Shown in pieces: positions 21,993 through 35,010 of a stretch of 64,000 nt of DNA. Where the stretch lies: positions 1-64,000 of the forward strand of contig JAYWIR010000104.1 in NCBI GenBank assembly GCA_036172245.1, written 5' to 3'. Below the pieces are notes generated by a model, which saw nothing but the letters and a program-made list of their open reading frames with translations, ran no database searches and was not told the DNA's origin. Numbering within the stretch: the first letter of the stretch is position 1; each line of letters starts with the position of its first letter. This DNA comes from Raillietiella orientalis. Its lineage: Eukaryota. The translations under genes were made by a program, and so were the position numbers.

Positions 21993-23209
21993 TGCGCGCC
22001 TGCTCCTGCGGCGCTGCACCGGCAGCGACGGACTTCTGTCGCTGCGTCCGCACACGGAGAACCCCACGACAAGTTTCCGTTCTCCTTAGAAACCGCTCTA
22101 CCGGCTCCTGGCAGCTCAGGAATGGATCTCCTGCCGCCCAACGAACTTTCAAGACAGGCGGCAGGAACCGTTGCATGGCTGGGAAAAGCACCAGGATGTT
22201 TCATTCCTGGAACTCCGTTGCGTTCACCTCTCTCCGAACTGCACGGTGGATGAGATCTGTAGCAGCCAGGAGAAGTGGACCGGCCTGGCCCTCACACCCC
22301 TCGCCGACGCACTGTCCGCCCTCAGGGCAAGAGATGACAGCTGCGAACCGGCGAGATGGGAGGTCGGCTCCACCATTGCAGGAACAACACCACCTATTGG
22401 CGGCTGGAGGACTTGCGAGCTGGCAGACGCCGCCACGCCTCGCCACATCTCGAAGGGACTCCTTCGGTGGAGTAAACACTTGAGTGTGCCCCCCGAAGAA
22501 CTTGCGGTCCCTCCCTCGTGTCTGAACACTTCTGTGTTCCCCCTTTCGTGGAAGCAGGACGTCATCATGCTGGTGCATTGAGGATTTCACTCCAACCAGC
22601 GGACGAACCGTGTTTCCGGGGAAGTGGTCTCTCCAAACTGTAAGCGGTGCGGGAAAGTGGAAACGCTCCCGCACCTGCTCCTAAACTGCGGTGCCCTTCT
22701 AGGACTTTGGTGGAGGCTGGCCTCAGTTCTCCTGCACCAGGGGGACACCGCGAGGGACTTGATGCGCCCTTTCTTTACGCCAAGCGGCCTGTCTTTGGGT
22801 GCTGTCATTGCAACCGTGTGTTGCACCCGCGCCATCGACAAGGCCCACCGAGTGTTGGAGAAGCTGGCCATCCTTCGTCAGCCCACCAGATTAGCCAGTG
22901 CAAGCATGTCGTCGGCTGCCGAGTGGGTCCATCTGCCACAGGACGTAAGGAGAGAGATCGCCGGCATTCATCGCCGGTTTTCAAAGAAAGGAACGGATTC
23001 ACCAAAACCCCCTGTCCCCTGCCCACCATGTTTTTATTTTTATTTTTTATAGTAGTGCATTTGTGGTCCCCTCCCTCCCGTTCCGGACTTTCGTCATACC
23101 GATCTGCATGTCAGGGATCCCACCCCCTTCGTATCTTGTTTTCCCCTTTGTCCAGGAACTCTGTTCCCGGATATTTTTTAATAAACGTTCCGGCGCATCC
23201 GGGAGATAA
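21993..23209 (+). mobile_element. Element H: 5'-truncated K-family copy
   Basis: Highly similar to about 31830-33046; CKRCGKVETLPH; terminus AATAAACGTTCCGGCGCATCCGGGAGATAA. Confidence 0.88.
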
Positions 23210-23966
23210 ATAGCCGCCCTGCAGAGATTCGTTCGATCTTTTGCGCTTGTTCTTCAGAGATCACGTGGATCTCCTGCAGCAGCGCAAGGTCGAAGGACTC
23301 CAGAAGGGCGGCCATGTCTCGTCTCCTGCCGGCATCTGTCATGCCGTTCTCGTTCCAAACGGCGATGCGCAGACGACGGAGGGAGGAGATTCCCGGCATT
23401 ACTGCTGGGAAGATTAAGGTGTGGGGAAGCACGCCTCTTGCGAGGCGGGCGGGATGTCCATGGGGGTTTCGGCCTTCTCAGGCACCTGAGGCACCTGTTC
23501 GGCCTCCATTCCCTCCATCCCCTCCATGTCCGCGCTTGGGAGTCTCTCGGGCGACGAATCCCGAGAGTTTTCCACGCTCATGGCACCCTCGCTTGCGGAA
23601 GCCATCTCTTCCCCATCGACGGGGGAGACGAGCTTCCTCGGCTTTGTGGACTTACGTCCAGCCTTTTTGCGGGGTGCCGTGGAAACAAGGCTGCGCTTTC
23701 GGCCTCCACCTCGGGGTCGGAAGTGGGGGACTCCTGAGAGGATGCCGGACGCCTTAAGGCCTTCTTGCCAGCCTTGGAGGCGGCCGGCTGCAACGAGGCA
23801 GCCAGCTCCTACGCGGCTCGCGCGATGGCTACGTCATCGATGGTGGTGTCGATGACGGACGCCGCCGCCGGCTCGCTCCCCTCGCTCTTGACAGAGTCAA
23901 CAGAGGGATTGTCGTCGGTAGCGGCTAGTTCTTTTTCGCAGTGGTCAGGAATACGCTCCACGGCAA
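23210..23966 (-). mobile_element. Element I, part 2 (ORF1 tail and start of APE)
   Basis: MPGISSLRRLRIAVWNENG...LLQEIH...ISAGRLF; ORF1 piece AVERIPDHCEK. Confidence 0.88.
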
Positions 23967-33046: not shown

Positions 33047-35010
33047 GCAGACGCCCCCCTGCGATCCTCTCGATCTCCTGGGCGTTTTCTGCGGTGATCA
33101 CGTGGATCTCCTGCAGGAGCGCCAGGTCGAAGTCGCGCAGGGTGTCGGCCGTATCCCGCCTGTTGCCGTCGTCGCGCAGCCCGTTGACATTCCAGCAGGC
33201 TACGCGGATCGTACGGCGACAGGCGAGCTCAGGTGTTATTCCTGGGAAAGTGGCAATGGGTTCCCGCCACCTTGTCGGGCTGGTCGCTAGGAGGAGAAGG
33301 TGCGTCCTGCACCGCTTCTCCGTCCTCCATGGGGCCGAATCTTCGTCAGGGCCGTGAAGAGGAAGGGGGTTTCACCCACCTGCACTTACTCTTCCATGGG
33401 GGTCGCCAGCTGCACGGTGTCGGGGAATGAGGGATTCCCACTCTCGCTTCCCACGCTGCCGGCTTTCCCGTCGGGTGCCAGTTCATCCTCCTCCTTATTG
33501 ATCCGTATGCGCCTCCTGGGATTCTGGGAGTTGCGTCCCGTCTTTTTTGGTGGCGCTTCCGTTGAGGAGGACGCACTTCCGGCATCCGGTTCGGCCTCAC
33601 CTGCATCCGGAGCCTTCCTCGCGGCCGGCCTTCGTAAGCCTCTCCGGGAGTTCTTCCACCGCCTGCTGGAAGGCGGCCTCCTCGATCGCGTCGAGCGCGG
33701 CGCGCGGTTCCCCCTCGGTTTCCCCAGAGGGTACGCTATCGACCGTCGCGGCTTCGGCGGATGCGAGGGGAAGGATTGCTCCCTCGGTAACGGCATCGAG
33801 TGCCTCCACACGCTCTAATTTTACCGAACAAGCGCGGAGTTTTTCGCGGCACGGTTTTTCGCGTTGCGTTTTTGTTTTCCCCGCGCTTCGTTCTGGACTC
33901 CCGGGCTTTCTTCTGGGCTGTACCATCTGCCAGCCTTCGCCGCCGCCAGCGTCGTCGGGAGTGCTCTCAACCGACGTTTGCTGGGATGGCTTAATGACTG
34001 GCATCTGGCTCCTTACAGCCTGCTTCATGGTATTCGTCTCCCCCGCCCGTTTCCCCTTTGCCTTTTTGGCAGCGGGAGGGACCGGGATTTCTCGTCTTGG
34101 GCACACCTTGCGGATGTGGCCCTTGTTCCCACATAAGTGGCATTGGATGTTAGGGCACCGTTTTTTTAAGTGCCTGTAGCATCGCAATGGCCACAATACT
34201 TGGGCTTTCCCACGTACCAAACATCGACTTTTTCTTCGCCGATATTTAGTTTGTGGGGAAACCCACCATTCTCCGGTAGTGTGACGCGGGCAGCAGCCAT
34301 CCCACTGAATAGCCTTCCGTACGTTTGGAAGACATTGGGTTTGGCCCAATACGCGTGCACATTACTGTGTTTTGACAACTCCTCATGGACGCTGGTTTTG
34401 TCCATTCGGAGTGATACGCCCGTGAGGTGGACCACGACGGAGCGGTCCTCCGTCACAGGGAAGATCCTGCGGCCGTCCACCGTAACGGGGGTGATTAGCA
34501 GGCGCTGCACCAGACTTGCCTCTCTGCAAGTCAGCTGAACTTGCTGCCCCCCACTAAGGACGGAGAGGCCCTCGAGGTCTTTCTCCCTCACATTCAGTCT
34601 TTGCAGCTCCATTTCAAAGGAGCGTGCAATTTTCTCGTCGAACACACTGCCTACCTTGTAGATCAGCGACGGTTTGTAGCCGCTGTCCTTGTAGGCAGTC
34701 TGCTCCGCTACTGCAGCCGGGGATGGTGCAGCAACGACGGCACTCCAACTGCTCGCCGCTGGCGAAGAGGGTCGCGAAGGGGCGGTTGCCCCCGATTCCG
34801 ATGGGGCAAGTGCCCCGGATTCCGTGGGGGAGGACGCCCTCACTTTCATGAGTGGTGAAGAGCAAGTCGCCTCTCCTCCCCCAATTTCCATCGCGGTATC
34901 CTCAGGCGTTTCTGCCAAGGGACACCGGCGCTCCTGCACACCAGACAAAACCACCGAAAACCTTCGCACTAACTAGACTGCTGAGCAATGCCAAACCACC
35001 TCCGCTCCCT
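33047..35010 (-). mobile_element. Element L: 5' part (5'UTR, frameshifted ORF1, start of APE), related to A
   Basis: ORF1 34166-34969 and 33597-34349 match A ORF1; APE start to EIERIAGGRLL; 5' motif GCGGAGGTGGTTT at about 35005. Confidence 0.9.

Follow-up and report, generated by a model that had tools for sequence, protein, structure and literature searches.

Can a long interspersed nuclear element (LINE) of one lineage take a single codon of another lineage as its landing site? The question is raised by a stretch of 64,000 nucleotides from Raillietiella orientalis (contig JAYWIR010000104.1, positions 1 to 64,000, assembly GCA_036172245.1), called the window here, whose first 37.6 kb, at about 60% G+C, form a nest of retrotransposons without long terminal repeats (non-LTR elements). 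The elements of this nest carry an open reading frame 1 (ORF1) with CCHC knuckles and an ORF2 composed of an apurinic-type endonuclease (APE), a reverse transcriptase (RT) and a C-terminal zf-RVT region (Pfam), and they were mapped by tblastn using the intact 1242-amino-acid ORF2 of one of them, element A, as the query. Two copies of one family, H and K, end at the same ORF2 codon in two host elements, I and L, that belong to a sister lineage. We give a little better than an even chance to the reading that H/K is a target-specific family, integrating by target-primed reverse transcription (TPRT) into this conserved codon of the sister LINE lineage.

H and K are members of the same family: 1047 of 1215 aligned bases are identical (86%), and over the last 400 nucleotides 341 of 398 bases are shared. 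At its 3′ end (23209) H reads ...GGCGCATCCGGGAGATAA, then ATAGCCGCCCTGCAG, and K at its 3′ end (33046) reads ...GGCGCATCCGGGTGATAA, then GCAGACGCCCCCCTGCG; in fuller form the terminal sequences are ...AATAAACGTTCCGGCGCATCCGGGAGATAA for H and ...AATAAACGTCGTGGCGCATCCGGGTGATAA for K, and the 3′ terminus of the family can be written as GGCGCATCCGGGWGATAA and close variants. Both copies lie antisense to their host LINE. At the H junction the sense strand of host I closes with ...GGGCGGCTAT, and at the K junction that of host L closes with ...GGGCGTCTGC. Read on the minus strand, the flank of H encodes ...QKIERISAGRL (CTA T^, where the caret marks the junction) and that of K encodes ...QEIERIAGGRL (CTG C^). 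The position of the junctions was set by alignment to four uninterrupted homologues within the window, A (CTG G^TG TGG), F (CTG C^TG TGG), D (TTG T^AT TGG) and M (CTA C^TT TGG). This alignment places each junction one base into codon 111, next after Leu-110, and so both at the same nucleotide, not merely in the same codon. With the final bases of the host the Leu codon expected there is complete, and these bases are therefore host-derived, not added. Elements E and J, of the H/K type themselves, have RAGKTLHW and RAGGTLHW at the homologous place, where the host lineage has xGGxLxW, and sequence of the E/J type departs from the target at five to six of the 13 bases before the putative nick. A preliminary description of this DNA had put the ends of H and K at one position of the APE domain, in hosts that differ at several nearby bases, with AGKTLHW and AGGTLHW encoded there by E and J; the alignment bears this out on each point and narrows the position to one nucleotide. 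Both H/K copies in the window, two only, thus share nucleotide and orientation.

The ends of the inserts are as regular as their position. Ten 3′ termini in the window, from several families (115, 6080, 10899, 15406, 21210, 23209, 29764, 33046, 35625 and 45899), have in common a 30-nucleotide module that consists of an AATAAA-type hexamer, varied to AATGAA in B and AATGCA in C, and exactly 24 further nucleotides. A stem of 5 bp (CCCGG/CCGGG type) with a 5-nucleotide loop is predicted within the module, and the termini close with (T/A)(G/A)(A/G)nAA, mostly TGAnAA and in H and K GATAA, without poly(A). That every terminus lies exactly 24 nucleotides past the hexamer fits a defined start of reverse transcription. 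The same pattern is seen in 'stringent' LINEs, whose reverse transcriptase, on recognizing its own 3′ end, begins at a set position. Within the window the H/K terminus pattern has four matches at up to three mismatches, with 0.06 expected by chance; scans of metagenomes for this terminus and for the A/F/P-type terminus returned 0 matching stretches each, and Rfam gave 0 matches across the whole window. The junctions of H and K are free of extra bases. In F, G, J and P, whose 3′ ends meet their hosts at four sites (15403-15405, 21207-21209, 29765-29768 and 35626-35628), the terminal AA is followed directly by ACG (CG in P); in J the host frame suggests that ACG is extra and not host-derived, and in F it could be a duplication of 3-4 bp.

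A second family in the same nest behaves in a similar way. The 3′ ends of A, B and C, copies that are 94-96% alike (375-383 of 400 bases), fall three times at one nucleotide of host RT coding sequence (115, 6080 and 10899), after ...GAC GCC AAG TTG CTA G^ at the place encoding 'DAKLL' (GACGCCAAGTTGCTAG^), and the terminus of this family ends ...CCGGGTGGCAA. The elements share 375 of 400 bases where the host flanks, in the two cases in which they are long, agree at just 85 of 114. Element A stands in tandem with B, both at one bond, and is bracketed by a 20-bp target-site duplication (95-114 and 6060-6079, matching at 19 of 20 bases), which implies a staggered second cut and the entry of A at a bond already used by B. 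As the A/B tandem shows, the primer side alone is sufficient for the A family. Recurrent insertion, precise to the nucleotide, in the coding sequence of LINEs is thus characteristic of this group. Nine LINE-in-LINE 3′ junctions were identified in the window (A, B, C, F, G, H, J, K and P), and in a model with nine junctions, an element of 5,945 nucleotides and two orientations, exact coincidence of any of the 36 junction pairs has a chance of about 0.003. When the junction of S in Q is included, the insert runs antisense to its host at every one of the ten LINE-into-LINE 3′ junctions, which occupy seven distinct sites. Candidate sources of this bias are recognition that is specific to one strand and a nick made in the non-template strand. 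Target mimicry, in which the 3′ end of the antisense insert would resemble the host beyond the nick, was considered and rejected both for the A family, where the score was reached by 18 to 431 of 500 shuffles, and for H/K, where it was reached by 147 to 991 of 1000.

Two copies at one nucleotide might descend from a single insertion, if the composite of insert plus host had later been duplicated, and the self-alignment of H and K does run 86 bp beyond the junction. This extension, however, amounts to host homology only: the flanks of I and L are identical at 133 of 200 bases (66.5%), far below the similarity of the inserts themselves, and L shares 176 of 200 bases with A, which is intact and has an empty site, while I shares 149 of 200 with F, whose site is likewise empty; a further alignment gave much the same result. 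In a maximum likelihood tree of the 210 nucleotides upstream of the nick from eight elements, L clusters with A and D, both with empty sites (support 96/96), and stands apart from I, with M between them and I/F. An approximately unbiased (AU) test rejects a clade of I and L (p 0.00064); this group was named for the test after the tree had been seen, and the duplication hypothesis predated the tree. The phylogeny to which the preliminary description had left the matter of independent events, run here on the host region, thus sets the two hosts apart. Host-type differences begin within 3 nucleotides of the junction, which excludes a copied composite and makes gene conversion up to the junction not credible. 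We therefore consider duplication of a composite refuted, and judged from these comparisons the H and K junctions are two separate integration events. A different arrangement, in which a 420-bp duplication flanking E...K would have D and L for its halves, is unlikely, as L agrees with A at 188 of 211 bases and with D at 181 of 211.

Separate events at one nucleotide could still arise from a loose nick preference, for which the conserved coding motif would be one of a few favoured sites per host, a hot spot and not a dedicated target. The junction bases are indeed short and non-identical (CTAT^ and CTGC^, with CTAG^ and ATAG^ in the A family), J, F, G and P entered at four other sites, and four homologous sites are empty; yet a loose motif would offer many candidate sites in each 6-kb host, against which stands the low chance of coincidence over the 36 pairs, and five hits out of five at two single nucleotides (two of two for H/K and three of three for the A family) are hard to square with it, so that we think a hot spot unlikely. 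No greater weight is due to homing by flank homology, of the kind that R1Bm reportedly achieves through read-through flank bases. In this case RNA of a source copy already lodged in the codon would carry a few host bases by read-through; these would pair with the same conserved stretch of a new host and set the start point, and a highly specific endonuclease would not be needed. The resulting pattern would be identical. The site does lie in a conserved coding motif common to diverged hosts, and H and K join their hosts without extra bases, in contrast to the ACG that comes after the terminal AA in F, G, J and P. By contrast, all ten copies end exactly 24 nucleotides past the hexamer, as expected if the RNA ends there, the first flank bases differ (ATAGCC and GCAGAC), and the shuffles described above reveal no homology of the insert terminus to the host beyond the nick. 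A third route would dispense with the endonuclease altogether: breaks at a fragile place of the host could have been patched twice by complementary DNA (cDNA) of the H/K type. This would account for the missing host remainder and duplication at both 5′ sides and for the head-to-head partners in G/H and N/K. Insertions made during break repair are usually 3′-truncated, however, and both inserts have complete and precise 3′ ends; moreover, a hot spot for breaks would not pick one family twice, and the separate site of the A family with its 20-bp duplication would be left unexplained. We regard such capture as very improbable.

Under target-specific integration, the reading that we prefer, H/K would insert by TPRT. 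A nick would open the sense strand of the host LINE one base into codon 111 of ORF2 (at ...ATC nnn GSn GGn CGK CTR N^), and the freed 3′-OH would prime cDNA directly at the terminal ...GATAA of the element RNA, past the 3′ stem-loop and without a poly(A) tract. Because the nick that primes the cDNA would be in the sense strand, the insert would lie antisense to the host, and the host sense strand, which continues into the insert cDNA, has the geometry of TPRT from a sense-strand nick. The site would most likely be chosen by the endonuclease/ORF2 protein of the family itself, reading the conserved primer-side bases. Since sequence of the E/J type differs at the site, the lineage to which H/K belongs would be spared, and the ORF2 of the host would be cut off after 110 codons. 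What the sequence shows is that H and K are one family, where exactly they join their hosts, how they are oriented and that the events were independent; we infer the nick, the protein that would make it and a preference extending to the family as a whole. The reading draws on the two H/K copies together with the parallel case of the A family.

Several observations weigh against this reading. Only two H/K copies were examined, and these themselves have no endonuclease domain. J, their nearest relative in the window, was inserted elsewhere, within the ORF1 of host I/N. The homologous site is empty in four elements, among them A, where it differs from the site in L at just 2 of 19 compared bases. 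Covariation in the stem-loop is minimal, one of five pairs having a compensatory change, and the stem is consequently a prediction only. Finally, neither a host 3′ remainder nor a target-site duplication is present at the 5′ sides of H and K. Of the earlier proposal that H/K has a recurrent target of its own, what stands is one family at the same nucleotide of differing hosts through independent events; the recurrence amounts to two copies out of two, with J elsewhere.

The 5′ sides deserve a closer description. The 5′ end of H joins G, and that of K joins the intact 5′ end of N; with host remainder and duplication both missing, the H and K events were not simple insertions. A regular 5′ junction is seen at neither of them and once in the A family, where the 20-bp duplication is found. 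The 3′ end of G was primed on element E at residue 400. The alternative that G is the remainder of host I was rejected: G and F agree at 46% where A and F agree at 54-56%, yet I and F agree at 65% where A and F agree at 61%. There are five head-to-head joins in all, B/C, D/E, G/H, N/K and L/P (9385, 12552, 21989, 30950 and ~35020). The remaining 3′ ends of the partners were primed on two different host copies, and the left partner is in all five something other than the rest of the right-hand host. Possibly cuts were made in two host copies and each 3′-OH primed a cDNA, after which the cDNAs would have been joined and the intervening DNA replaced. Clean nested insertions are also present, which indicates that ordinary TPRT operates here: F is inserted in E with at most 4 duplicated bases, and across J the ORF1 of host I/N reads IKECSV/AALAVERIP, as does A_orf1 (IRECSVALERVEVP).

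As for the identity of the H/K lineage, its closest relative in the window is J, with 72-74% nucleotide identity. J has Pfam matches to Exo_endo_phos (1.3e-12) and RVT_1 (7.3e-10), and A carries both domains; the endonuclease of the elements matches PF03372. H and K retain only C-terminal parts of ORF2, and the zf-RVT match of K, at 18.4 bits, is below the cut-off of 27.5. The best match among solved structures is LINE-1 ORF2p (E 8.7e-41), that to R2 being far weaker, and the neighbours of the ORF2 in a protein atlas carry RVT_1, Exo_endo_phos and zf-RVT. Judged by its sequence, the H/K lineage is an APE-type, L1-like non-LTR retrotransposon. A word-based protein search gave nine matches, the best with 22-24% identity over the local alignment (30% over a shorter stretch). 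An exhaustive search found two closer relatives on short JGI contigs, P0130 (64% identity) and P0132 (72%), the endonuclease region lying outside both. The coordinates of H, K, their hosts and the compared sites are collected in Table 1.

Table 1. Positions of the H/K copies, their hosts, neighbouring elements and homologous sites in the window
Feature	Position	Strand	Description and basis
H, 5′-truncated H/K-family copy	21990..23209	+	tblastn; C-terminal part of ORF2 from about residue 904 of A_orf2, and 3′ untranslated region (UTR)
K, H/K-family copy	30951..33046	+	from about ORF2 residue 610 to the 3′ end
Terminal 30-nucleotide module of H	23180..23209	+	AATAAA and 24 nucleotides, CCGG/CCGG stem, GATAA end, no poly(A)
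Terminal 30-nucleotide module of K	33017..33046	+	AATAAA, short stem-loop, GATAA, no poly(A)
Host I	23210..23971	-	ORF2 codons 1-110 and first base of codon 111, with C-terminal region of ORF1; joined to H
J, full-length H/K relative with in-frame stops	23972..29764	+	simple insertion, nested within the ORF1 of host I/N
N, 5′ part of the element of host I	29765..30950	-	ORF1 and intact 5′ end, GGACGTG...
Host L	33047..35020	-	ORF1, ORF2 codons 1-110 and first base of codon 111; joined to K
G, 5′-truncated copy of another family	21210..21989	-	nearest to Q (57% of amino acids); head-to-head with the 5′ end of H
Empty homologous site in intact element A	3719..3737	-	ATCGCAGGGGGGCGGCTGG; alignment
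Empty homologous site in D	12155..12173	-	alignment
Empty homologous site in F	19028..19046	-	alignment
Empty homologous site in M	35716..35734	-	alignment
Homologous place in E (lineage of H/K)	14737..14757	+	GCAGGCAAGACGCTCCATTGG, AGKTLHW; differs from the target
E, candidate full-length element	12553-15405 + 20953-21209	+	interrupted by later insertions

Element A (321-6059) is apparently intact: its frames, read from stop to stop, span 1242 amino acids in ORF2 and 667 in ORF1, its 5′ end (CGGACGTG...) is complete, and it is flanked by a target duplication. It may have been active recently. The 3′ part of E, a full-length element, may be represented by K; the pieces so linked do not overlap.

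The right, AT-richer part of the window contains a second LINE family, a fragment of a piggyBac-type transposase and an ankyrin-PRANC ORF. The second LINE family (40221-51752) is represented by S on the minus strand and T on the plus strand, which are 75% alike and lie head-to-head; their terminus, ...CCCCACCCCTTGTGGGACTxGGGGAAA(A), is distinct from that of the first family, and S has entered the 3′ UTR of Q in antisense orientation. U, a 3′ fragment of about 100 bp with the module of the first family, ends at 45899, directly before the 5′ end of T. Its module (45870-45899) was rejected as an additional example of a target, U standing in tandem before T. An inverted repeat of 465 bp (51763-52226 and 59815-60280, 97.6% identical) opens with AGCAATGTATGTTAC, the same words as the start of T, and is possibly a short non-autonomous relative. 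The transposase fragment is at 57829-58392 (DDE_Tnp_1_7, 5e-13). Ankyrin sequence at 37667-38972 and 60274-62840 includes an uninterrupted ORF of 725 amino acids, whose PRANC match is weak (E 4e-4, below the cut-off) and whose named relatives are mainly insect proteins with at most 55% identity. An inverted ankyrin fragment, 77-85% alike, adjoins the 5′ end of M, so that the LINE nest is next to a duplicated ankyrin gene or within it.

Known LINEs with a specific target insert in ribosomal DNA (rDNA), in telomeric repeats, in genes for small RNAs, in microsatellites or in one of a small number of DNA transposons. LINE clusters are known too: Zepp of Chlorella forms them by self-nesting, and the LINEs of the window similarly accumulate inside one another in clusters. 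We know of no report on Zepp-type clusters in which a fixed codon of a rival lineage is the target. The head-to-head joins of two 5′-truncated pieces (G/H, B/C) resemble the L1 5′ inversions that Ostertag and Kazazian reportedly explained in 2001 by twin priming. Unlike the products of twin priming, each partner in the window keeps a complete 3′ end of its own, the two being primed on separate host copies, and the partners can belong to different families.

That a LINE can target another transposable element is already known from the Tx1 clade: the portion of PMC4494074 drawn on here describes Tx1 of Xenopus as inserted in the piggyBac-type transposon Tx1D, and 313 of 347 copies of the crocodilian SINEU-3 as flanked by Mariner-N4_AMi. 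Like these LINEs, with which it is compared by target, H/K is an APE-type non-LTR element at a defined place inside another transposable element; unlike theirs, its target is the protein-coding endonuclease domain of another LINE lineage, entered in antisense. R1/TRAS/SART-type APE LINEs have sequence-specific endonucleases and target rDNA or telomeric repeats, according to the relevant part of PMC4640811, and in the parts of the literature cited the Tx1 and R1 clades are named as APE-type groups. With R1/TRAS/SART elements H/K shares a 3′ junction that is precise to the nucleotide, an orientation that does not vary, a target present in many copies and RNA with a defined 3′ end in place of a long poly(A), but its target is neither rDNA nor telomeric, and nothing places the elements of the window in the R1 clade. 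In a limited search of the literature we found no case of a fixed ORF2 codon of another LINE lineage as a target, which is weak evidence of absence.

The two families of the nest might even belong to a network of targeting among LINE lineages, an idea that we offer tentatively and would not expect to hold in full. Each family would have evolved an endonuclease that homes antisense into one conserved ORF2 codon of a rival, which for H/K would be codon 111 in the endonuclease domain and for the A family the 'DAKLL' codon in the RT. The family's own lineage would have a resistant sequence there, and simultaneous cuts in several host copies, bridged by two converging cDNAs, would build up the alternating head-to-head nest. 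In such a network the targeting LINEs would gain a safe landing site and at the same time disable their competitors. If target-specific integration of H/K is correct, competition between retrotransposons would here be acted out at the level of DNA. It would also explain how GC-rich islands of LINEs build up in an AT-richer genome without damage to host genes. Such families would be a source of new natural APE endonucleases with long recognition sites, for which the two sites of the window would be directly testable substrates.

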